Source: a virus
Reading direction: 5' to 3' (one strand)
Length of the DNA stretch: 64,000 nucleotides
Virus record (IMG/VR): IMGVR_UViG_3300009130_000013
Location: 1 to 64,000 of that record
A program made the translations under genes and the position numbers. Under the pieces are notes generated by a model, which saw nothing but the letters and a program-made list of their open reading frames with translations, was not told the DNA's origin and did not search any database. This document shows positions 16,640 through 60,351 of this stretch, piece after piece; the first letter of the stretch is position 1; the number at the start of each line of letters is the position of its first letter.

Positions 16640-17953
16640 ATGACAATAGACTGTAAATTCCTTGATCATGCTTTAGCTATACGTCCTAATGGAAGGGTGT
16701 TGCCTTGCTGTCGCTATACAGGAGATGAAGAAATACTTACTGATAATAGTGAATATAATAAAGAATTCTTGTTTAGTAGAGCTAAAGAACCTATGAAAAA
16801 AGGTAATTGGGCGTCTGGTTGTGAGAAATGTCACATACAAGAGTCAGCAGGTAATACTAGTATGCGAACAGAGTCTTTAAGGTTGTTTAATGATTTAAAT
16901 ATCTACAATTATCAGTTTATACGCGGTCCTAGACCCAATAATCCTAATATAGATGGTACATTAACGTTCTTAGAGATAATGATAGGTCGTTATTGTAATT
17001 TAAAGTGTCGTATGTGTACACCGGAGTTAAGTACAAGCTGGGACGAGGACATTAATAGAGATAATTCATTAATTAGTGAAATGTTTTATAATCCTAGTGA
17101 CTGGGAAGAGGCTAAGAAGCTACCTAAAACAGTAGATACAATGCTTAACTTAGATAAAGAAGCTTGTAAGGATCTAAACGAGATAAAAATTACAGGAGGT
17201 GAACCCTTTTTATCCGACTATCTTGACGAGTTTCTTCAACATCTAGTAGACTGGGATTTAGCACAAAATATTACATTAGATATATTCACTAATTGTACAT
17301 TTATACCTAAAGAAAAGTATATTAAAAACTTTAATAAGTTTAAAATGGTATTTCTTAATTTAAGTATAGATGGTATAGAAGAACGAGGTGAGTTTATTCG
17401 TAAAAAGAGTGATTGGAAAGCAGTAAGCAGTAATATTAAATGGTATTGCGATTATGCTCTTAATAATGAAAACATTTATGTAACTATAGCAACTACATTG
17501 GTCTTATATAATGTTTATTATTTAATTGAATTAATTAATTGGATTGATAACAATATTCCTGACAATATATTAAATGGACAAAATGAATTAAACTTTCTAT
17601 CGACAAATAAATGTTTTACGCCCACTCATTTAAGCATATACAATTTAAGTGTTGATAAAAAGAAAGAATTAATTAATAAATTAGAAAAAGATTTTAATTA
17701 CATTAATAAAGAAGTTAGCCAAGTAAAAAGAAGTAGTAAATTAGAAGGTGGCGGACAGTGGTCGTGGAATGTATATAGAATAATTAATCAAATTAAAGAT
17801 GATTTATCTAAAGGAATAGATAGTCGTAAAGGCAATAAAGCTAAAATTACTTCATTTAATTCATTTAATAAACGAGAATCTAAGTTAGATAAACTACGAG
17901 ATGAAGATTGGACTAAAGTATTCCCTGAATTAAAGGATTTTTTAAATGACTAG
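16640..17953 (+). CDS. radical SAM protein with N-terminal Twitch/SPASM-like domain
   Basis: PCC, CEKC, CNLKCRMC, TGGEP. Confidence 0.9.
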   Translation: MTIDCKFLDHALAIRPNGRVLPCCRYTGDEEILTDNSEYNKEFLFSRAKEPMKKGNWASGCEKCHIQESAGNTSMRTESLRLFNDLNIYNYQFIRGPRPNNPNIDGTLTFLEIMIGRYCNLKCRMCTPELSTSWDEDINRDNSLISEMFYNPSDWEEAKKLPKTVDTMLNLDKEACKDLNEIKITGGEPFLSDYLDEFLQHLVDWDLAQNITLDIFTNCTFIPKEKYIKNFNKFKMVFLNLSIDGIEERGEFIRKKSDWKAVSSNIKWYCDYALNNENIYVTIATTLVLYNVYYLIELINWIDNNIPDNILNGQNELNFLSTNKCFTPTHLSIYNLSVDKKKELINKLEKDFNYINKEVSQVKRSSKLEGGGQWSWNVYRIINQIKDDLSKGIDSRKGNKAKITSFNSFNKRESKLDKLRDEDWTKVFPELKDFLND

Positions 17954-19014: not shown

Positions 19015-19682
19015 GAGAATTTACATTATACCCACACGGTGGAGGTCGGAACTTTTTAGGTGCTTTACAGGTTGTTATAAGAGGTATGGAAAGTCCTAAA
19101 CAAATCCAGGCTGTAATAGAAGGTCGTAACTTGTTTGACGACACTTATCCACCTGTTAATTTTAATCCTGAGTTTTTTATTCGTACACCTTGGAATAAAG
19201 AATTAATTAGATGCCAAGAAGTATGGATAGAATATTTAAGTAAAAGACGTACACAAGCATCAGCTAAAAAACAAATAATTGATTTATTAAATGAATGTTA
19301 TCAAGGATCATTTCATTTAAAAACAGCATTACCTACAATAAGTCGTTATTCAATTGTTTGTATAGTAGAAAGTCAACTATTACATCAATGGTTAGACCAA
19401 TTAGCAACAATTAAAAAAGATTTAGAGAAATATACTAAAACAAATGTTCATGAGAGTAACTTATGCTTCAGTAACAACTTAGATCTATTACATACATATA
19501 GAGCTGACTGGAGTTTTTCTTATAGCGATATGTTTTTTGAGTTAAATACAACACTACACGAAGACTTCATAAAAAGGACTGAAGATTGTTTCAAAGTTAA
19601 GTCCGCAGTTGACCTTAATACAATTACAGACTTAATCAATAATTATAATGAAAGAAATCATCAAATATTAATATATGAGTAA
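19011..19682 (+). CDS. PxGAG-family protein, paralogue 2
   Basis: YPHGGGRNFLGALQ; C-terminal LINNYNERN. Confidence 0.55.
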   Translation: MREFTLYPHGGGRNFLGALQVVIRGMESPKQIQAVIEGRNLFDDTYPPVNFNPEFFIRTPWNKELIRCQEVWIEYLSKRRTQASAKKQIIDLLNECYQGSFHLKTALPTISRYSIVCIVESQLLHQWLDQLATIKKDLEKYTKTNVHESNLCFSNNLDLLHTYRADWSFSYSDMFFELNTTLHEDFIKRTEDCFKVKSAVDLNTITDLINNYNERNHQILIYE

Positions 19683-21006
19683 AACATTTTGCCCAATTCC
19701 TTGGATATTCCAAGCAGTTAGAAATAACGGTGACATAAGAGTATGTTGTCAAGCTAACGTAACGCCTAATCAAGGTGTTGTACGACATTCTGATGGCACT
19801 AGTTATAATGCTGGACGAGATTCATTTGATGAAGCCAAAAATGCTGAATTAATGAAGATAATTCGTAAGAATATGTTAGCAGGTCGCTGGAGTGAAGAGT
19901 GCGGTCGCTGTAAACAAGAAGAAGAAGCAGGATTACAAAGCAGACGCTTGTACGAAAGAGAACATTGGGATTATTCATTTGATCAAGCATTAAAAGAAAC
20001 AGCTATCGATGGAAGTATAACAGTTCGTAATCAATATTACGATTTACGCTTCGGTAATATGTGTAACTTGGCTTGTAGAATGTGTGGACCTACAGATAGT
20101 CATACATGGTATGAGCAATGGTTAGGTTACCACGGTGGAACAGGGTACGAAGATACACACGGTAAAGTTGAGCTTACTCGTAATGCTAAAGGTAGATTAA
20201 CAACTACTGACTACGATTGGCATAATTCAGAAACATTTTGGGAACAAATAGAAAAGAATATTCCTTATATTGAACACGTTTATATGGCAGGTGGTGAACC
20301 TATGATGATTGAACGTCATTATGAATTCCTACAACGCTGTATTGATAGTGGTCATGCTAAAAATATAATGATTGAATATAATACTAATATGACAAGTCTT
20401 CCACCTAGAGTATTAGAAATGTGGAAAGAATTTAAGCAAATAAGAATAGGTGCTAGTATAGATGGAATGGGAGATATGTTAGAATACCAACGTTGGCCTA
20501 TTAAGTGGAGACAAGCTAAAGTTAACCTAGAAAAAGTAGACAACTTACCTGATAATGTTATAGCCTGGATAGCCTTTACAGTTACAGCATATAATATATT
20601 TCATTTACCTGAATTTATGATGTGGAAGTTAAAAGAGTCTGGATATAAAAAGATTAATTCAAGTTCAGCAAAGCCTATTATAACACATCACGTAGCACAT
20701 GGACCTAAACGTGCTAATATTAGATTATTAAATAAAGAATTAAAACAAGATGTACACGAGCATTATGATTATTATAAGAATAAATTAGCAAAAGACGAAA
20801 CAATTGATTCTAATATTAAAAAGAAATTCAATAAAATATTAGATAGTGTAACAAACTATATGGATGCCGAAGACTATTCAGAAAAAATACCTGAATTTAT
20901 TAAGTTTACAAAGTATTTAGACCAAGAAAGAAAACAAAACATACTAATGGTTACACCGCAGTACAAGGAAATGTTTGATGAAAATAGGACCACAGGAACC
21001 AAGTGA
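19675..21006 (+). CDS. radical SAM protein with N-terminal Twitch/SPASM-like domain
   Basis: FCPIPW..VCC..CGRC; CNLACRMC; AGGEP. Confidence 0.92.
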   Translation: MSKTFCPIPWIFQAVRNNGDIRVCCQANVTPNQGVVRHSDGTSYNAGRDSFDEAKNAELMKIIRKNMLAGRWSEECGRCKQEEEAGLQSRRLYEREHWDYSFDQALKETAIDGSITVRNQYYDLRFGNMCNLACRMCGPTDSHTWYEQWLGYHGGTGYEDTHGKVELTRNAKGRLTTTDYDWHNSETFWEQIEKNIPYIEHVYMAGGEPMMIERHYEFLQRCIDSGHAKNIMIEYNTNMTSLPPRVLEMWKEFKQIRIGASIDGMGDMLEYQRWPIKWRQAKVNLEKVDNLPDNVIAWIAFTVTAYNIFHLPEFMMWKLKESGYKKINSSSAKPIITHHVAHGPKRANIRLLNKELKQDVHEHYDYYKNKLAKDETIDSNIKKKFNKILDSVTNYMDAEDYSEKIPEFIKFTKYLDQERKQNILMVTPQYKEMFDENRTTGTK

Positions 21007-37670: not shown

Positions 37671-38310
37671 ATTTAAAAAATGGACATATATAATCTTAGG
37701 ATTTATATTTGGATTAATATTAACATTTGTTGTAGGAACATTTTACCCTAACTTTTATGTTGTATCAAAATTACAACAACAATTTGATGATAAGATTCAA
37801 TCTGTTTGGGAAGACTTTGGTATAATAGAACCTGCTATAGAATATTCAAACAATAACGAATTTGTTTTATCTGTTAGTAAATGTATTCAATGGATAAATT
37901 TAGGCGTTAAAACACACGAAAGAATAGATAGAGAAATTATCATAGCAATGGCTGTTCTTGAAACAGGATACGGAAAGAGTAGATTTGCTAACGAAGGTAA
38001 TAACTTATTTGGTATTAGAACTTGGGATGATGAAATACCACAACTAAAACCATTAGGAAATCCTGACGTTGTTTGGGGTGTAAGAGTATACAAAACCAAG
38101 TGCCAATCAGTTCAAGATATGATAAGTACTATTAACAGACATCCAGCCTATGAACTGTTTAGAATTGAAAGAGCAAAACAGTTAGAAACAAATTCTATTA
38201 ACATTAATAAACAAATCGATCTTCTAAACAAATGGAGCACCAACCCTGACTACACAAAACTAATTAAGCAAAAGGTTATAAAGATTAAAAAAATATTAGA
38301 GAATGGGTGA
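37657..38310 (+). CDS. membrane-anchored glucosaminidase (Bax/GH73-like)
   Basis: N-terminal TM; AMAVLETGYGKSRFANEGNNLFGIR. Confidence 0.85.
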   Translation: MMKRKFKKWTYIILGFIFGLILTFVVGTFYPNFYVVSKLQQQFDDKIQSVWEDFGIIEPAIEYSNNNEFVLSVSKCIQWINLGVKTHERIDREIIIAMAVLETGYGKSRFANEGNNLFGIRTWDDEIPQLKPLGNPDVVWGVRVYKTKCQSVQDMISTINRHPAYELFRIERAKQLETNSININKQIDLLNKWSTNPDYTKLIKQKVIKIKKILENG

Positions 38311-39553
38311 ACCGATTTATAGTTTAAAAAATCTCAACACAATCCAAGTAGAACTTACAGCCAATTGTAATGCTATGTGTCCTGCTTGTGACCGGTGGGT
38401 TAGAGATACCGATAATAAAGATAAAACACTAAAGGTTGGTGACTTAAACCCTACCATTAAACCTTACCAAGGTAGTAAAGGACATTTTACTTGGGAGGCT
38501 TGGCAAAATTTATTCAATAAAGAAACATTAGCAGACTTAAGAATGATCACCTATAATGGAACTTGGGGTGATGCTATTTTACATCCTGATATATTTTCGT
38601 ATACACAACATATCATTGATACAATAAAAGAAACAGATAATAAATTTTGTGCTCTTGAAATTAGTACCAATGCTGGTTTACATTCTACAGATTGGTGGAG
38701 AGAATTAGCAAACTTAAACAAACAATTTTATCAGCCATGGAGTAAAGTTATATTTTGTATAGATGGACTTGATGATAAAACCCATCAACTATATCGTAGA
38801 GCAGTTAAGTGGGAAAAGGTTATGGAAAATGCCAAAGCATATATAGACGAAGGTGGTAGAGCTGTTTGGCAATGGTTACAATTTGATCACAATAAACATC
38901 AAACAGAACAAGCAGAGGAATTAGCAAAAGAATTAGGGTTCGCTGAATTTTGGTTAAGAGGCAGTCGAGGTGAACGTTTAGCAGTACAAAAAACAATAGC
39001 AAAATTAGGTGACGACGATACTGATATCGGAAATGTAGACGTAGCCTTGTATAATAGCAAAGCAGTAAACAGACGTGTTAAACATAATGAAGCGAAAGAG
39101 GGCTCTATATCGTATATTACAGATAAGGATAAAGTATCAGTTAATACAAAAGAAATAACATCTAAATATAAGAATTACGAAGATTATAGAGAGAATACAA
39201 CGATTTCTTGTTCCTGGGGGAACAAAGGAAAAATCAACGTGGAGTTCAACGGTTTAGTCCATCCATGTTGTTACGTTAACCACTATATGAATAACTTCTG
39301 GAGTAAAGAACTAGATGGTCATTTAGAGGGTAGCGAATATGAGATTATGACAGATAGTTATGTTGGTCATTGGAATAATTTGAACCATAACAATCTACAG
39401 AACATATTATCTCATAACTTTTATATGAACGACCTGGAGCAATCTTGGAAAAATAAGACAGGTGATTTAGAACTTCCAAGACTAGGTGTTTGTGTAAGTC
39501 ATTGTGGTGAAGGCCACGAAAACATCAGAAGTTATGATGTAAGCAAACTGTAA
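38303..39553 (+). CDS. radical SAM protein with C-terminal SPASM/Twitch domain
   Basis: CNAMCPAC; HPCC; CVSHC. Confidence 0.9.
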   Translation: MGEPIYSLKNLNTIQVELTANCNAMCPACDRWVRDTDNKDKTLKVGDLNPTIKPYQGSKGHFTWEAWQNLFNKETLADLRMITYNGTWGDAILHPDIFSYTQHIIDTIKETDNKFCALEISTNAGLHSTDWWRELANLNKQFYQPWSKVIFCIDGLDDKTHQLYRRAVKWEKVMENAKAYIDEGGRAVWQWLQFDHNKHQTEQAEELAKELGFAEFWLRGSRGERLAVQKTIAKLGDDDTDIGNVDVALYNSKAVNRRVKHNEAKEGSISYITDKDKVSVNTKEITSKYKNYEDYRENTTISCSWGNKGKINVEFNGLVHPCCYVNHYMNNFWSKELDGHLEGSEYEIMTDSYVGHWNNLNHNNLQNILSHNFYMNDLEQSWKNKTGDLELPRLGVCVSHCGEGHENIRSYDVSKL

Positions 39554-51225: not shown

Positions 51226-52524
51226 ATGTTTTTAGACCCAACGAAACTCAGAAGAATCACGATAGAAATTACAGCAAACTGTAATAGTTTCTGCCCTCAA
51301 TGTTTGAGAAGAGTATCAGGTGATATTCCACATTTAAATTTAAAAGAAGGTGATGTTAATCCAGCAATTAAAGTAGGTAGTTCTGGTAATATGCCTATGT
51401 CTACTATTAAGAATATCTTTACTCCTACAGTAATGGGTGGACTTAAAACATTAGACTTAAATGGTTCGTTTGGTGACGCTATTAATCACCCAGACATGAT
51501 AGAGATACTTCATTATATTGCTGATGTAAGTGATAGTGTAAAGTCACAGAGATTAAAGAATGATCGTAACACTAGAACAGACCTATGGGTTAGTACTAAC
51601 GGTGCTATGAGAAACAAAGAGTTTTGGACTGACCTTGGGCATTTAGCAAGTCAACGATACAATCCTAACAACTCAGAATTAATATTTGCTTTAGATGGAA
51701 CAGATGATAAAACACATCAACTATATCGTAGAGGTTGTTCATACGAAAAAGTTTTAGAGAATGCTCGTTACTTTATGGAGGCTGGCGGCAAAGCTATATG
51801 GCAAATTATTGAGTTTGACCACAACAAACATCAAATAGAAGAAGCAAAAGAACTAGCAAAGAAATTAGGATTTGTTAGAATTGATGTAAGACGTAGTAGA
51901 TGGGCTGAAAGAATTAGTAATCAATTAAGAGAAAAAGCAATTAAAACAGGTGTTGTAAGTGTAAAAGAAAAAGAAACAGACTTCGACCATAAAGGATTTG
52001 GTAACGTTAAGAAAAAGAAGTTTGAAAACAAATCACATAAGCCACCTACAGATCATTACAAGTCAATGGAAGAAAAAGCTAAGAAAATTGTTGTAGAAAA
52101 GTTTGACAATAGTATGGATGACTATGCCAACAACTGTAACATTTGGTGCTCATGGGGTAATGAAGGAAAGTTACAAATTGAATGGGATGGTCGTGTACAC
52201 GTTTGTTGTCACTTTACAGCCTATTTTGCTCGTTCATGGCGTAAAGATATGGCTAACCCTGATGGTAGCCCTAATAATACATACCATAACAAGTATGTGT
52301 CGAACTATGATGAGAAATGGAATTATACCAGCCATCATACATTAGAAGATGTGTTAGGACATAAGTTCTTTCAAACGGATTTACAGGATAGTTGGAAAAA
52401 CCGTACTGACGATCCAATTAAACCTAGAATGGAGATCTGTGTAGATAACTGTGGTAGTATCGTACAAGAGCTCAGAGATAAAAAAGAAGATAGAATATCT
52501 TTAGACGGAGGTAAAACAACATGA
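51226..52524 (+). CDS. radical SAM protein with C-terminal SPASM/Twitch domain; close paralogue of 38303..39553
   Basis: CNSFCPQC; THQLYRR, CSWGN.GK, HVCC, CVDNC. Confidence 0.9.
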   Translation: MFLDPTKLRRITIEITANCNSFCPQCLRRVSGDIPHLNLKEGDVNPAIKVGSSGNMPMSTIKNIFTPTVMGGLKTLDLNGSFGDAINHPDMIEILHYIADVSDSVKSQRLKNDRNTRTDLWVSTNGAMRNKEFWTDLGHLASQRYNPNNSELIFALDGTDDKTHQLYRRGCSYEKVLENARYFMEAGGKAIWQIIEFDHNKHQIEEAKELAKKLGFVRIDVRRSRWAERISNQLREKAIKTGVVSVKEKETDFDHKGFGNVKKKKFENKSHKPPTDHYKSMEEKAKKIVVEKFDNSMDDYANNCNIWCSWGNEGKLQIEWDGRVHVCCHFTAYFARSWRKDMANPDGSPNNTYHNKYVSNYDEKWNYTSHHTLEDVLGHKFFQTDLQDSWKNRTDDPIKPRMEICVDNCGSIVQELRDKKEDRISLDGGKTT

Positions 52525-55278: not shown

Positions 55279-55726
55279 CAAATTTAAAAGCAGTTTAAGG
55301 TTTGGCAACAAACTAGAAAAGAATCATGCTCTTAGAGTAATCGAGCAAATCCATCCAAAGTGTACTATACACGAACCAGACGAATACAGAGAGAATGGAT
55401 TAGCAGTTCCTGATCATATAATAAAGAAAGGCAAAAAAATCGTAGCCTTTTATGACAGCAAAAACAAACGTTCAACATATAAAGTTACAGGTGAACCAGA
55501 AAGAATTTGGAGTGTTGATGAGAAACTTTTAGAATATAGAAAATATGCTCTAAAACATAAAGCACCTTGTTACTTAATATTCTATCATAAAGATAGCGAT
55601 AAAAATAATGTGTATATTGTGGATGTTAGTATTGAACCAAAGTTCTATAGAAGAATCAATAACAAGTACGGTGAACACTGGTACGGTTATTACATATCAC
55701 AAACAACACCATATTCAATTGATTAA
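55256..55726 (+). CDS. putative PD-(D/E)XK nuclease
   Basis: G..LE...VPD...YDSK motif. Confidence 0.55.
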   Translation: MPTLKQSNKFKSSLRFGNKLEKNHALRVIEQIHPKCTIHEPDEYRENGLAVPDHIIKKGKKIVAFYDSKNKRSTYKVTGEPERIWSVDEKLLEYRKYALKHKAPCYLIFYHKDSDKNNVYIVDVSIEPKFYRRINNKYGEHWYGYYISQTTPYSID

Positions 55727-55753
55727 AAAGCCCTCTGTAAGGAGGGCTTTTTT
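55726..55753. terminator. bidirectional Rho-independent terminator
   Basis: AAAAAGCCCTC-TGTAAG-GAGGGCTTTTTT between convergent genes. Confidence 0.85.
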
Positions 55754-55757
55754 ATGA

Positions 55758-55829
55758 TTACTTTTTCTTTTTCTTTTTATTTTTAGCCTTCGCTTTTTTA
55801 GAAGGCTTTTTTTTCTTTTTCTTAGCCAT
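55758..55829 (-). CDS. 23-aa lysine-rich peptide
   Basis: MAKKKKKKPSKKAKAKNKKKKKK; SD AAGG; TAAATA late motif upstream. Confidence 0.5.
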   Translation of the reverse strand: MAKKKKKKPSKKAKAKNKKKKKK

Positions 55830-55882: not shown

Positions 55883-56479
55883 TTACTTAATATCTTCTAT
55901 CTTATCACACAACTTTAAGGTTTTAGCCTCTTTGGCACTCAACCATACGTCCTGTGGTGGAAGTAAAAACTCTCTAATTTTCTTTTCAGTTAACCCTGTA
56001 CATTTTTTGTAGTGGTTAATCATACGTTCTGTAGTTAATTCTAGTTCTTTAACACGAGCAAATAATTCGTGTTCTTTACCAGCACTACCCCAACTATATT
56101 GATGTGATAGTATTGCTGTATTAGGTGTAAGTATTCTACGACCTTTCTTACCTGATATGAATAGTAACAAGCCACAAGAAGCAATCATACCTAATCCTAT
56201 TGTTCTAACAGGTATTGAAGATGCTCTCATAACATCAATTAAAGCAAAACAGGCATTTAAGTCTCCACCTCTGGAGCAAATTCCCAAGGTTAACTCTTTT
56301 GCCTTATTCCCTTTCTTCATATTTTCAGCAAGAATCCAATCGACGATCGGGCTCAAAGTGTCCATTGTTACATCACCCATGAACACATACATACCATTCA
56401 TAAGTAATTCTATTTTAGGTAGCATCATTTCTGGTCCAGGTGGTTTTGGGGCACCGTTAGCCGGTTTTTTATCTGACAT
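55883..56479 (-). CDS. clpP: ClpP protease subunit
   Basis: S.GG, IASCG (catalytic Ser), SHQ (His), DVWLSA.EA (Asp). Confidence 0.88.
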   Translation of the reverse strand: MSDKKPANGAPKPPGPEMMLPKIELLMNGMYVFMGDVTMDTLSPIVDWILAENMKKGNKAKELTLGICSRGGDLNACFALIDVMRASSIPVRTIGLGMIASCGLLLFISGKKGRRILTPNTAILSHQYSWGSAGKEHELFARVKELELTTERMINHYKKCTGLTEKKIREFLLPPQDVWLSAKEAKTLKLCDKIEDIK

Positions 56480-56520
56480 TTTCTTGTTCTCCTTGATCCT
56501 TTGTTATATGTTCCATTGTG

Positions 56521-57039
56521 TTAAAATCCCACACTAGAGTCGTTGTCTTCATAATTACGATCTTTTGTTATATGTTCCATTTTATTAAAGTCCCACAACT
56601 TTAATGTTTTTTCTGTAAATTCATTACCCGAATCCTCAGGTAACATCATTTTTTGAGGAAGTCCTTGTCCTTGCCTTTGTTTGGCTTCCGATAATTTCTT
56701 TTCTCTTTCTTTAGTATATTTTATTTTATATGATCTAGGTTCCATTGACCTTGACATATCAACAGCCCAAATGTATATCCATTTTTGCTCATGTCCAACT
56801 AAATGAGTTATATAAACTTGCTCTTGTTTAGAGTTAAAATTAGTTGGATAGCCGAGCATATTTTCTATATTTGTTTTAACACTCATAGAAAGAAATAAGA
56901 TTAAAGGTATCATAACATACGTCCACCTATTTACCTTACCATATCTAATCATTGTTAACAATGAAAAAGACATTAAAACAAATATAGAAATAGTTAAGAT
57001 TGTCTTAACAGTTTCAAAATCGAAATAACTAAAGACCAT
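56521..57039 (-). CDS. two-TM membrane protein, third member of the motor-like module
   Basis: Two N-terminal TMs; LGYP..WIYIW..EPRSY..Y. Confidence 0.7.
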   Translation of the reverse strand: MVFSYFDFETVKTILTISIFVLMSFSLLTMIRYGKVNRWTYVMIPLILFLSMSVKTNIENMLGYPTNFNSKQEQVYITHLVGHEQKWIYIWAVDMSRSMEPRSYKIKYTKEREKKLSEAKQRQGQGLPQKMMLPEDSGNEFTEKTLKLWDFNKMEHITKDRNYEDNDSSVGF

Positions 57040-57754
57040 GTTCCGCTCCTTCTCCTGGCGCTGGATTTAAATTCGTACTTGGAATATGACCTTCTAAATC
57101 ACCTTCCGACTCATAAGCATTTTGAGTTGGTTTGCCTTTAATAAGATGTGAAGGCCTATTATTAAAACCCACCCAGTTACCTTTCTTGTCTATAGTAAAT
57201 CTGACTAGGCTTTTTTCTTCCCAACGTCTACTGTATGTTCCTTCGCCTTTATACATAACTTTATACGGGTTAATTTTAATAACTTCTATTGTATACTTTG
57301 TTGGTACCCTGTCACCTTTTATACCACCATCTACTTTCTTTACAAAAGGTCTCGCATATACGTGAAGCATAACTTGGTATTCACCAGCATAAGTACCTCT
57401 TAATGTAACTATCTCCCTATTCAATTCTATTATAGTTTCATTACCATATTCATCTATCATTTTATCGTTTTTAGAACCTAAGTCATCTTTTTCAAGATTC
57501 ATAAAACCACTAGTCTTGTTTTTAAAACTAACTACTCCACCACTTGGATCAGAAACCCAAAGATCTATATCATCTTTTGATTGGTGTTCCCATTCCATTA
57601 CAATTATATACTCTGCTTTTTTTACTATATCAGCCTCTTTTGCTGGTGGTTGAATAAGCAAAAAAGCAATAATAAACATGGCTCCGAATCCTGCTAACAA
57701 GATCCAGAGCATATCTAAGAACGAGGTTATACTTTTAAATTTTGTTCTATTCGC
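57029..57754 (-). CDS. single-TM protein with MotB/ExbD-like Asp helix and YfaP/DUF2135-like extracytoplasmic domain
   Basis: ITSFLDMLWILL TM; W....DDIDLWVSDPSG, LEKDDLG, NREIV, GEYQV.LHVY. Confidence 0.7.
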   Translation of the reverse strand, partial: ANRTKFKSITSFLDMLWILLAGFGAMFIIAFLLIQPPAKEADIVKKAEYIIVMEWEHQSKDDIDLWVSDPSGGVVSFKNKTSGFMNLEKDDLGSKNDKMIDEYGNETIIELNREIVTLRGTYAGEYQVMLHVYARPFVKKVDGGIKGDRVPTKYTIEVIKINPYKVMYKGEGTYSRRWEEKSLVRFTIDKKGNWVGFNNRPSHLIKGKPTQNAYESEGDLEGHIPSTNLNPAPGEGAEHGL

Positions 57755-58238
57755 CATCTTCTTGATCAAATTCTATATTCATTAATTGAACTTTTGTAAT
57801 TAAAGCACCTATCATACCACATATAGTAGTATACATCGCAGTTGAAAGTCCCCTAGCCATATGACCCAAAGCGTCTTTAAGATCTTCTGGGTTACTTGGA
57901 TCTATCTGGTCGAATATCATTCCAAATAAATATATCATTCCTGCGATCGTTCCAATCAATCCTAATGTCATCATTGTTTCTGAACAGAACCAACAGACAT
58001 CAATAACCTTTTTGGTGAATCCATTATACTCTTTATCTTTAGCATCAATGTTAGTTCTATAGGCGGCAATACCTGTTAGTATTGTTGCTATTAAAAATAC
58101 GCCATATATTATAAAACTAATATTAGTAACGTCAGCATGATAGATATCTTTAAATACACCAAAATGCCATAACGGATAAATGCCACACAGAGTAATCGTT
58201 GTAAGCAACCACCAACGAGGCAGAGTTTTTCTTATCAT
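57747..58238 (-). CDS. MotA/TolQ/ExbB proton-channel family protein
   Basis: LGLIGTIAGM...GLSTAMYTTICG. Confidence 0.85.
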   Translation of the reverse strand: MIRKTLPRWWLLTTITLCGIYPLWHFGVFKDIYHADVTNISFIIYGVFLIATILTGIAAYRTNIDAKDKEYNGFTKKVIDVCWFCSETMMTLGLIGTIAGMIYLFGMIFDQIDPSNPEDLKDALGHMARGLSTAMYTTICGMIGALITKVQLMNIEFDQEDGE

Positions 58239-59260
58239 TTTGTTTTTCCTTCTGCTTCATCTAGAGCTCCGTTGAATTCCCTTATACGTTTAATAACTGA
58301 TAAAAAGTCTACGATAGTAGTCCATCTATCTATAAAGAATCCCATCGAACTTTCAACTCGTCCAAAGGCGTTAAGCACTTGGAACAAGACCCCTAGAGTA
58401 ATTAGTTGATCAAAGTATGCTGGTGCTAATACAATTAAAGCTAAATTACCAACAGCTAATCCAAAAGAAGTTTGCCAAACACCAAAGCCCATATACCAGT
58501 TAAACAGTCTGTAATAGTTCTTTTTAACTGCCGAGAACATTGGAAATAAAACATCTGTAGCTCTTTCTTTAAAATTGTCTTCTGAAAATACTAATTGCTT
58601 CCTAAAAGTTGCTTCTACTTTCTGGTTGTTATATTCAAGTTTAGGAAGTTTCCAACCCAGAACAACTGATATTAGTGTACCACCCAATGATACGCCTAAT
58701 GCTACCCATACTAAAAACCCAGGAATTATTTGGCCATTCCATACTGGTAAGCCTTCTGATAAATTCCATAGGATTGGAAGGAAGGCAAACAATATCAATA
58801 TAGACGAAAAGAATCCAGTAAACAATCCTTGTAATGTTTTACCGAATATCATTAAGTCTTCTTGAATACGCTGGCTTCCACCTTCTATTTGAGCGTCACA
58901 ATTTTCCCACCTTCTTAGGTAGTAGTGTGTATTAGCCTCTCGCCAATGGAAACAATATCTTTGTGTTTGCCACGTGGCGTAAACGGCTATTGGAACATAC
59001 AAGCCTATAATTTCAATAAATGAAGGCATGGTATCTTCTGTTAGTGTAACGAAATCCCAAATCCTCTCGAGATTAAACCCTAGAAATAATTCCCAAAATC
59101 TATCTTCTTGAAGAGATTGAATAGCGTCATAAATTTCTTTATTCCAAGCATTATAAAATACTAGAATTTCTACAGTATACCAAGATATACTTAATAATAA
59201 TGACAACATAACCCAAGCATAAAAGGCCTGACTTCGTTCTAAGAAAAATGACTTTAACAT
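58235..59260 (-). CDS. sbmA: SbmA/BacA-family peptide importer
   Basis: M.KSFF, N.W...YDAIQ, F.WR.A...Y, IEGGSQRIQED, LEYNNQKVEA.FRK.LV..ED; no NBD. Confidence 0.88.
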   Translation of the reverse strand: MLKSFFLERSQAFYAWVMLSLLLSISWYTVEILVFYNAWNKEIYDAIQSLQEDRFWELFLGFNLERIWDFVTLTEDTMPSFIEIIGLYVPIAVYATWQTQRYCFHWREANTHYYLRRWENCDAQIEGGSQRIQEDLMIFGKTLQGLFTGFFSSILILFAFLPILWNLSEGLPVWNGQIIPGFLVWVALGVSLGGTLISVVLGWKLPKLEYNNQKVEATFRKQLVFSEDNFKERATDVLFPMFSAVKKNYYRLFNWYMGFGVWQTSFGLAVGNLALIVLAPAYFDQLITLGVLFQVLNAFGRVESSMGFFIDRWTTIVDFLSVIKRIREFNGALDEAEGKTK

Positions 59261-59272
59261 TGACTATCTCCT

Positions 59273-60097
59273 CTAATCATGTGTCCCTGACAGTAAAACT
59301 CCTTCACCTGTCACTCCCCAAAAGTTTTTATAATGTGTAGCCAATGTAGCAAGTGCTGGCTTGTACTGAAAATCTCTTGGATTTAAAAAGTACATTGACG
59401 TAGATGGTACTTGAAGAAACAAGTACTTAATATCATCGTCTGTTATACCTAACTGATCAAGCAACATCATTATTGCCGCACTAGTTCTGTACGTTTGTGC
59501 CTCTAAAGCTCGTTTACCAACTTGTGGTAATACTTCATCTGGAGTTCTAGGACTATGTATACCAAAGTACACGTCACCAATTAAGTAACGTTTATCTCCG
59601 CCTAAAAATATTAATGAACACGAAGAAGCACACATAACTTTGCCGTCCTTACTTGGCCATCCTGGTATTGATACCTTGCCAGGATCGTATAGTATTTCAC
59701 CGTCTTCATTAATAACAGGTGTATCTCTAACTACTGTAACTACATTTCGATGTTTTAAATGAGCCGCCAAACAAGCCCCATCAATTAATGATCCACCGGG
59801 GCTTTCTAATATTACAGAAAAAGGCGAGCCATCATTAGGCAATTTAGCTACAATCTTTTCACAGTCGTCAACTTGAACGTAACCAGTCATTGAATATAAT
59901 GACTTTGATAATTGTTTAAATTCTAACCCCGGTAATTGTTCGTCATTAAGTGAATGAGTATAGGGCGGGAATGGCGAAGCACCAGAACCTGTATCTTGGT
60001 TGCTAACAAACCAAAAAATATTTCCCACAAGTATCGATACTAATATAATGCCCGATAATAGGAACCATCTAGTTTCCTGAAAAAACGACTTAAACAT
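59273..60097 (-). CDS. membrane-anchored ClpP/crotonase-fold periplasmic protein (COG3904-like)
   Basis: N-terminal TM; LESPGG, CASSCSLIFLGG, GIHSP. Confidence 0.75.
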   Translation of the reverse strand: MFKSFFQETRWFLLSGIILVSILVGNIFWFVSNQDTGSGASPFPPYTHSLNDEQLPGLEFKQLSKSLYSMTGYVQVDDCEKIVAKLPNDGSPFSVILESPGGSLIDGACLAAHLKHRNVVTVVRDTPVINEDGEILYDPGKVSIPGWPSKDGKVMCASSCSLIFLGGDKRYLIGDVYFGIHSPRTPDEVLPQVGKRALEAQTYRTSAAIMMLLDQLGITDDDIKYLFLQVPSTSMYFLNPRDFQYKPALATLATHYKNFWGVTGEGVLLSGTHD

Positions 60098-60351
60098 ACC
60101 TTTGTTTTCCTTTTCTTCTTAGTAGCCATTTTTGTTTCCTATTTGGGCTTAGAGTTATTTCTGTGACACCTATTGTCTTAATGATAGTCTACACATCCTT
60201 ATTAAAATGTTATAGTATTATTTATTTTAAAATCAAACCATAGATAAATGGCCATTAAAGTTTTTATTTTTTTAACATAAATTAGGTCTTGACAAGTTGC
60301 TCGAAATGTGTTATAGTATACTAATAATAACGAAAATGAATAATCAATAAC

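Follow-up and report, generated by a model that had tools for sequence, protein, structure and literature searches.

We analysed a cluster of six minus-strand genes in the DNA of an uncultured virus (IMG/VR record IMGVR_UViG_3300009130_000013, positions 1 to 64,000; these 64,000 nucleotides [nt] are hereafter called the window). The cluster encodes a three-gene module that we call A-B-C, a P6-SbmA gene pair and a ClpP-like protease. The window makes up the initial 64 kb of a 93-kb viral record, whose CheckV completeness of ~26% points to a jumbo phage with a genome of roughly 350 kb. The G+C content of the record is ~34%, and its tail-fibre, baseplate, ligase, PhoH and radical-SAM genes confirmed that it comes from a tailed phage. 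A blastn comparison of the operon region with 50,697 phage records returned no match; at the DNA level, the record has no close relative among cultured phages. The source is a fragment of an uncultured marine jumbo phage.

The open reading frames (ORFs) of the cluster and the two flanking signals are as follows:

59273-60097, minus strand: P6, ORF
58235-59260, minus strand: SbmA-like, ORF of 341 amino acids (aa)
57747-58238, minus strand: A, ORF of 163 aa
57029-57769 (TTG start), minus strand: B, ORF
56521-57039, minus strand: C, ORF
55883-56479, minus strand: ClpP-like, ORF of 198 aa
60219-60226, minus strand: candidate promoter, a AATAAATA box similar to late promoters of the T4 type, located ~120 nt 5' of the P6 start (pattern match read from the sequence)
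55725-55750, minus strand: hairpin resembling an intrinsic terminator (AGCCCTC...GAGGGCT, then a T run; read from the sequence)

An earlier note on this DNA had described six minus-strand genes, four of them overlapping, and the ORFs agreed exactly. The genes for SbmA, A, B and C form a chain with overlaps of 4 nt (SbmA/A), 11 nt or 23 nt (A/B, with an ATG or the TTG start of B, respectively) and 11 nt (B/C), whereas gaps of 12 nt and 41 nt separate P6 from SbmA and C from ClpP, respectively. The TTG start of B is most likely wrong; the true start is probably the ATG at 57757, giving a protein of 242 aa, because a metagenome protein 97% identical to B has this length. Since all six ORFs have conserved homologues in many contigs, they are real genes rather than chance ORFs. 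A Pfam search of the six proteins recognised SbmA, ClpP and A and gave no match for B, C and P6. We are highly confident that the cluster is composed as described, of an A-B-C trio, a P6-SbmA pair and ClpP.

A minimal channel subunit and its aspartate-bearing partner

Protein A matched the Pfam family MotA_ExbB (PF01618) with an E value of 1e-6 and 29.0 bits, above the curated cut-off of 22.9 bits, and two A homologues from Rhizobium phages also passed (26.8 and 26.2 bits). Members of the A family are 150-163 aa long and have four predicted transmembrane (TM) helices, with a TM2-TM3 loop of ~22 residues and a short tail as their only cytoplasmic parts. The residues invariant in the A alignment (G96, T97, T133, T137 and T138) form Gly-Thr and Thr-Thr motifs in the last two TM helices, the very region that Pfam aligns to MotA_ExbB. 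Beyond Pfam, the best profile matches of A were ZorA membrane domains (PADLOC ZorA, E 1.2e-8; NCBIfam ZorA_4, E 4.4e-6, 25.9 bits against a cut-off of 500). A sequence-profile search of the PDB gave an E value of 0.26 to chain 8vvi_F, which is not significant. By family assignment from its sequence, A is a minimal channel subunit of the MotA/ExbB/TolQ family.

Protein B carries the SFLDML motif that the earlier note had placed at the essential-Asp position. Its Asp (D19, counted from the TTG start) was invariant in all 116 distinct homologues, which we drew from viral contigs, Rhizobium phages and bacteria, so this part of the earlier description stood. Residues W60, D67, D69, G98 and E119 were likewise invariant, and D95, D96 and D102 were kept in 115 of the 116 sequences. 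A metagenome protein collection held 370 B homologues, none with a Pfam domain. The AlphaFold 2 (AF2) model of B, with a predicted local distance difference test score (pLDDT) of 78, consists of one long helix (residues 8-39), a conserved linker, a beta-sandwich (54-203) and a disordered tail; the Asp sits in the helix at its cytoplasmic end, followed by ~20 hydrophobic residues. The role of B as the Asp-bearing partner is well supported.

An exhaustive structure search with the B model returned TerD first (2qz7_B, Z score 9.3 over 130 residues with a root-mean-square deviation of 3.7; 2kxt, Z 8.3), followed by a calcium-bound Bacteroidales protein (2lge, Z 6.4) and generic immunoglobulin-like sandwiches (Z ~5). 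Foldseek also placed TerD-family proteins among the top matches of the model (E ~3e-4 to 8e-4). At the sequence level, none of 23 B family members matched TerD (PF02342), and the B profile found nothing significant in the PDB. The YfaP/DUF2135-like domain previously proposed for B was not borne out by sequence: only one of the 23 members matched DUF2135 (PF09906), with an E value of 0.083, and the model of B has a TerD-like fold instead. A TerD-like fold for the periplasmic domain is well supported by the structural model. The acidic cluster of B resembles a metal-binding site and, by analogy with TerD, the sandwich may bind metal.

In its AF2 model (pLDDT 75), protein C has a two-TM hairpin of helices and, after it, a small beta-barrel that includes one helix. 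The C alignment showed conserved IP and LGYP motifs and a conserved His79. The best structural matches reached Z ~6 only; they included OB-fold toxin B subunits and were not decisive. The modelled barrel is weakly OB-like and, by the positive-inside rule, probably periplasmic.

The A-B-C trio in phages and bacteria

A scan of IMG/VR with the B alignment identified 278 relatives. We fetched 80 of these loci and added three Rhizobium-phage loci, giving 83 viral loci. Single-sequence tblastn detected A in 80 and C in 72 of them, and inspection revealed a C-like two-TM gene after B in the rest. A adjoined or overlapped B, with B downstream, in 80 out of 83 viral loci and in 60 out of 60 bacterial loci, and a C homologue lay 3' of B in every locus inspected, including the bacterial locus L132 (hhalign probability 98%). 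Among cultured phages, the trio occurred only in those of Rhizobium and Sinorhizobium (28 records, including phage 16-3), where all three genes were annotated as hypothetical; neither SbmA nor ClpP was found near the trio in these 28 records.

In the genome collection, A-B pairs were present at 60 loci, mostly in SAR116 and other Alphaproteobacteria. One complete SAR116-type chromosome has the trio flanked by TctABC/gamma-glutamyltranspeptidase genes on one side and by luciferase-like, dehydrogenase and anthranilate-synthase genes on the other; the third gene of the trio matched the C profile with 98% probability, and the synteny is kept across SAR116 genomes. This chromosomal location and its conserved synteny indicate an ordinary cellular operon that phages share, so the notion of a phage-specific device had to be given up. 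In a second clade of Alphaproteobacteria, the trio is flanked convergently by otsA (GT20), a GH15 trehalase-like gene and otsB (L097:8139-11977, minus strand; L093:11452-12231, minus strand), a setting that may reflect a connection with osmotic or envelope stress or mere synteny. A is longer, ~295 aa, in these otsA/otsB-flanked genomes. The neighbourhood survey of phages and bacteria for which the earlier note had called thus revealed conservation of the trio in both, but bacteria and Rhizobium phages carry it alone. All six genes, 55-87% identical to those of the window, were also present on a 106-kb contig (L084, PBDY01000027.1) of a metagenome-assembled genome labelled 'Gammaproteobacteria', which is probably a phage contig mis-binned into a bacterial assembly.

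P6, SbmA and ClpP

P6 consists of a TM anchor at its N-terminus and a periplasmic domain. Across 35 diverse homologues, an SPGG motif, C156, S158 and C160 (CxSxC) and H181 (GIHxP) were invariant. We found 430 close homologues and 528 representatives at E<=1e-3. In distant relatives, the core, which Pfam did not recognise, is fused to Sel1 repeats or PG_binding_1, in keeping with a periplasmic location. When the diverse P6 profile was compared with the PDB, 35 of the 37 matches at E<=1 were ClpP, all of them sub-threshold (best E 0.038), and the alignment to ClpP comprised two co-linear stretches, the SPGG loop and the Ser/His region. Clp-related matches in NCBIfam were weak, and hhalign gave only 4% probability between P6 and the phage ClpP alignment. 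The ClpP/crotonase fold previously read in P6 thus gained consistent ClpP matches, none of them above threshold; a ClpP-fold, Ser/His peptidase-like protein is a probable but unproven reading of the sequence. P6 was not found in the 401 Alphaproteobacteria genomes searched or in four trio-bearing genomes.

P6 starts with MFKSFFQET (60071-60097) and the adjoining SbmA with MLKSFFLER (59234-59260), both on the minus strand. MLKSFF was universal in phage SbmA homologues, and an SbmA-like N-terminus of P6 was limited to the window's clade. NCBIfam aligned P6 residues 1-37 weakly to SbmA positions 1-35 (E 0.24), and BLASTP of P6 against SbmA did not detect the common N-terminal motif. The likeness suggests that the TM anchor of P6 was copied from the 5' end of sbmA.

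SbmA matched PF05992 (SbmA_BacA) with an E value of 1.8e-78 and 264.6 bits (cut-off 24), over model positions 5-313 of 315. In NCBIfam it scored 299.6 bits against a cut-off of 385 for NF009036 (a 326-residue model, matched at full length) and 229.9 bits against 492 for NF008306 (model positions 85-401). It is a short form, lacking both an ATPase domain and the first ~85 residues of the E. coli type. The best bacterial match in the 401 Alphaproteobacteria genomes was at most 44% identical, and several such matches came from genomes of ~1.2 Mb. The family assignment identifies the gene product as an inner-membrane transporter of the SbmA/BacA family.

The ClpP-like protein matched PF00574 (CLP_protease; E 3.7e-27, 95.8 bits, cut-off 20.2) and has an intact Ser101-His126-Asp177 triad, with S101 and H126 invariant and D177 at least 90% conserved. 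Its N-terminus is atypical, being Pro/Lys-rich, and it fell below the NCBIfam cut-offs for the ClpP equivalog and for head-maturation proteases. By family assignment, it is a ClpP-family serine protease, predicted to be cytoplasmic. A gp21-type prohead protease (PF03420) was not matched in the record, which is ~26% complete, but the controls were also unmatched; the ClpP-like protein might therefore still act in head maturation. A canonical-looking ClpP of 208 aa (YINSPGG, AASMG) was encoded at L217:1231-1857 (minus strand), on a 342-kb contig that also carries the trio and P6-SbmA; it adjoins a lysozyme gene and an M15-like peptidase gene and indicates that such phages can hold both a standard and a divergent, operon-linked ClpP.

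Linkage between the modules

A viral scan with P6 yielded 64 loci, in which we scored linkage within 6 kb. SbmA lay directly downstream of P6 in 61 of the 64, so the two genes are a fixed cassette. A-B-C was located within 6 kb of P6-SbmA in 29 of the 64 loci, in at least five gene orders:

P6-SbmA-A-B-C-ClpP (the window)
ClpP...A-B-C...P6-SbmA
ClpP-P6-SbmA-A-B-C
P6-SbmA-A-B...ClpP
an inverted form

A ClpP-like gene was present near the other modules in 13 of the 83 viral loci from the B scan and in 19 of the 64 from the P6 scan. In a maximum-likelihood tree of B, the clade that contains the window is well supported and comprises ten viral rows. Seven of these were covered by the neighbourhood scans; all seven carried P6, SbmA and the trio, and six also carried a ClpP-like gene. 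SbmA-linked trios occurred in at least six other clades of the tree. A second SbmA lineage, ~34% identical to that of the window and with PF05992 E values up to 3e-134, was found in other phages, directly after C or a few genes downstream, without P6.

The linkage of SbmA and ClpP to the trio is thus shared with other genomes, in several different gene orders. The single operon envisaged by the earlier note fared less evenly: the six genes are as described, but they are a composite of separable modules, P6-SbmA occurring without A-B-C and most A-B-C loci lacking SbmA. In another phage (L067:7133-7615, plus strand, with identical loci L072, L074 and L076), C was followed by a 160-aa Na+/Pi-cotransporter-like fragment (PF02690, E 1.5e-16).

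Flanking signals and other features

The AATAAATA box and the downstream hairpin, as read from the sequence, are consistent with a single transcription unit, and the hairpin at 55725-55750 probably ends it. Generic promoter and terminator scans of the region showed no excess over the shuffled expectation. A 23-aa poly-Lys ORF (MAKKKKKKPSKK...) lies at 55758-55829 (minus strand), at the operon end, with a 9-bp hairpin on one side and the clean, intrinsic-terminator-like hairpin on the other. This ORF lacks conservation: no K-rich small ORF followed ClpP in 11 related loci. Another Lys/Arg-rich start (MATKKKRKTK...) at ~60096-60127 (minus strand) overlaps the P6 start codon in another frame and may be a short upstream ORF or a chance occurrence. 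Elsewhere in the window, four genes with radical-SAM domains occur within 36 kb (16640-17953, 19675-21006, 38303-39553 and 51226-52524, plus strand; PHROG E 1e-10 to 1e-17).

Interpretation

Taking these results together, the best overall explanation, to which we assign a probability of about 0.5, is that one transcription unit joins three separable parts, a miniature motor, the P6-SbmA pair and ClpP; their most likely joint use would be as an envelope-uptake route. MotAB, ExbBD, TolQR, GldLM and ZorAB make up a small set of ion-driven motors of 5:2 composition, which turn membrane potential into mechanical work, and by its defining sequence features A-B-C would belong to the same MotA/ExbB-MotB/ExbD superfamily. 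By analogy with the solved ExbBD, TolQR and MotAB complexes, we infer a 5:2 assembly in which the A subunits ring the TM helices of B; the path of the ions would include the conserved Thr residues of A and the Asp that is invariant in B, and their passage would move B relative to A. Because A has essentially no cytoplasmic domain, the output of such a motor would be in the membrane or the periplasm. The likely outputs would be the TerD-like sandwich of B, with its acidic cluster, and the two-TM partner C, which would take the place held by TonB or TolA in the Ton and Tol systems. With some reserve, we favour the view that the trio is an ion-driven motor.

The motor would energise or gate a periplasmic step. 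In the infected cell, P6 might trim a cargo that SbmA would then import and ClpP degrade. Proteins of the SbmA/BacA family are proton-driven peptide importers, and microcin J25 needs ExbBD-TonB to cross the outer membrane of E. coli and SbmA to cross the inner one. This double need, together with the repeated association of the trio with SbmA, suggests an uptake role in phages. A functional coupling of the motor to P6-SbmA-ClpP is a tentative proposal, on balance rather unlikely. The widest form of the proposal, that the trio is a new minimal class of ion motor coupled to transport, powering or gating P6-SbmA-ClpP uptake in phages and serving other partners in bacteria, seems to us less likely again.

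Several observations weigh against this overall explanation. At the level of the proteins, the sequence matches of A to known families are weak, in Pfam (E 1e-6) as in the PDB (E 0.26); B lacks both an OmpA-like and an ExbD/TolR-type periplasmic domain; C has no convincing structural relative; the fold of P6 is unproven, its ClpP matches all being sub-threshold; and the AF2 models of B and C are of single chains only. At the level of the loci, 60 of the 83 A-B-C loci lacked SbmA within 6 kb by single-sequence tblastn, the trio stands alone in Rhizobium phages and bacteria, a phage record that is 84% complete has P6-SbmA and no trio, and ~30 kb separates the modules in a 342-kb phage that is 92% complete. 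Related jumbo phages, mostly represented by small fragments, account for many of the linked loci, so the counts overstate the number of independent events.

The locus-level observations also form the case for the strongest alternative, in which the modules are not coupled at all: each would work alone, as an independent membrane or auxiliary module that merely shares the late/membrane-gene region of related jumbo phages. P6-SbmA occurred without the trio within 6 kb in 35 of the 64 loci, and the Na+/Pi-cotransporter-like fragment after C in another phage suggests a general membrane-protein gene cluster. However, close linkage recurs across the gene orders and the B-tree clades listed above, two SbmA lineages only ~34% identical to each other both adjoin the trio, and in the window's clade stop and start codons overlap at the junctions of the SbmA, A, B and C genes. 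We consider this explanation about as probable as the coupling, and likewise rather unlikely.

Much less likely is a role of the trio as a superinfection-exclusion device or a Zorya-like envelope sensor at the inner membrane, with P6-SbmA and ClpP as unrelated cargo. The best profile matches of A are indeed ZorA membrane domains, exclusion is a frequent function of inner-membrane proteins encoded by phages, and proteins of the TerD family are part of Ter operons, which have historically been linked to phage inhibition. However, A, at 163 aa, has no ZorA-like tail, and its NCBIfam score is about one-twentieth of the cut-off. Clear PADLOC matches were confined to the ZorA membrane domains in A, with one marginal match in B (PD-T7-5, E 0.043) and none in the other four proteins, and therefore no defence-system effector genes were seen in the operon; moreover, the SAR116 trio lies in conserved metabolic synteny rather than in a variable defence island.

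An action on the cell wall or in lysis, in which C or B would bind peptidoglycan or an envelope glycan and the motor would position, gate or time a step that senses loss of membrane potential, is very unlikely as well: an ESM Atlas structure search placed the C model near a cluster of viral proteins of 297 aa, each with a Phage_lysozyme domain (query TM-score 0.62, 151 residues aligned), and the C barrel weakly resembles glycan-binding OB folds, but no C homologue in the examined loci, long variants included, exceeded 258 aa or had a Pfam domain, a search for longer C proteins found none and retrieved no C-lysozyme fusion, the lysozyme genes of trio-bearing phage records lie far away from it and are unrelated ORFs for soluble proteins that lack a C-like TM hairpin, and free-living bacteria keep the trio without lysis genes.

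If the motor-coupled uptake route were real, infected cells would gain a phage-built, motor-assisted import pathway; the repeated linkage to SbmA-type importers hints at such an undescribed, virus-encoded uptake function. The trio itself would be the smallest ion-driven motor so far, with a channel subunit of ~150 aa and no cytoplasmic domain, and its small size would make it a good minimal model for motor function. It would also add a new periplasmic output, the TerD-like sandwich, and a new obligatory two-TM partner. The trio is abundant: ocean viral contigs that carry it number in the hundreds, and it is also present in cultured phages of Rhizobium and Sinorhizobium and on chromosomes of SAR116 and other Alphaproteobacteria. 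Because phage 16-3 of Sinorhizobium meliloti carries it, the question is open to genetics.

Comparison with known systems

TerD-family proteins are soluble, cytoplasmic and calcium-binding. B resembles TerD (PDB 2qz7 and 2kxt) in its predicted fold over ~130 residues and in its invariant Asp-rich motifs, whereas it lacks the TerD Pfam signature and its domain is membrane-anchored and periplasmic.

The SbmA of the window resembles the SbmA/BacA importers in its full-length PF05992 match and in the absence of an ATPase domain, and its linkage to an ExbB/ExbD-like motor parallels the known logic of import across two membranes. It differs from them in its short N-terminus and in its identity of at most 44% to alphaproteobacterial homologues, and this lineage is always preceded by P6, which was not found in the 401 Alphaproteobacteria genomes searched.

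Like the Ton and Tol systems (ExbB-ExbD-TonB and TolQ-TolR-TolA), the trio has a channel subunit with a MotA_ExbB domain and a partner whose only TM helix bears an essential-type Asp close to the cytoplasmic end. A and B show translational coupling, the gene for a third, membrane-anchored partner adjoins them, and the output is expected to be periplasmic. By contrast, A has four TM helices, no cytoplasmic domain and a length of ~150-163 aa rather than ~230-245 aa; B has a TerD-like beta-sandwich, not the alpha/beta domain of ExbD/TolR; and C has two TM helices and a small barrel in place of an SHLS-type helix, a Pro-rich spacer and a TonB_C/TolA domain. The trio has no known outer-membrane partner. 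In line with the earlier statement that no TonB gene lies nearby, TonB_C was not found in the 93-kb record, which is itself only ~26% of the phage genome.

With MotAB and PomAB, the trio shares a four-TM A and an Asp in the TM helix of B, and the conserved linker after this helix would lie where the plug of MotB does. The trio differs in that A lacks the FliG-binding cytoplasmic torque loop and B lacks an OmpA-like peptidoglycan-binding domain (no OmpA match; a beta-sandwich instead), and in the absence of flagellar genes nearby and the presence of C as an extra obligatory partner. ZorAB of Zorya provides the best-scoring profile matches of A, in ZorA membrane domains, at scores far below the cut-offs. 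Here, A lacks the long ZorA tail, B lacks a ZorB-type peptidoglycan-binding domain and ZorC-E are absent, and the trio occurs in phages and in bacterial core synteny.

A 2025 survey of MotAB homologues lists non-flagellar groups of unknown function, none with this architecture. The three-component module had been called undescribed, and we likewise found no description of an A-B-C trio in the literature searched (on pelagimyophages, SbmA/ExbB, TerD/ExbD, DUF2135 and auxiliary metabolic genes with ExbB). The specific tests for a Ton/Tol system, a stator and Zorya failed on the domain of B, which is of the wrong kind, on the lack of a TonB/TolA-type partner and on the missing cytoplasmic loop or tail of A. 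A-B-C represents a new branch within a known family of motors.

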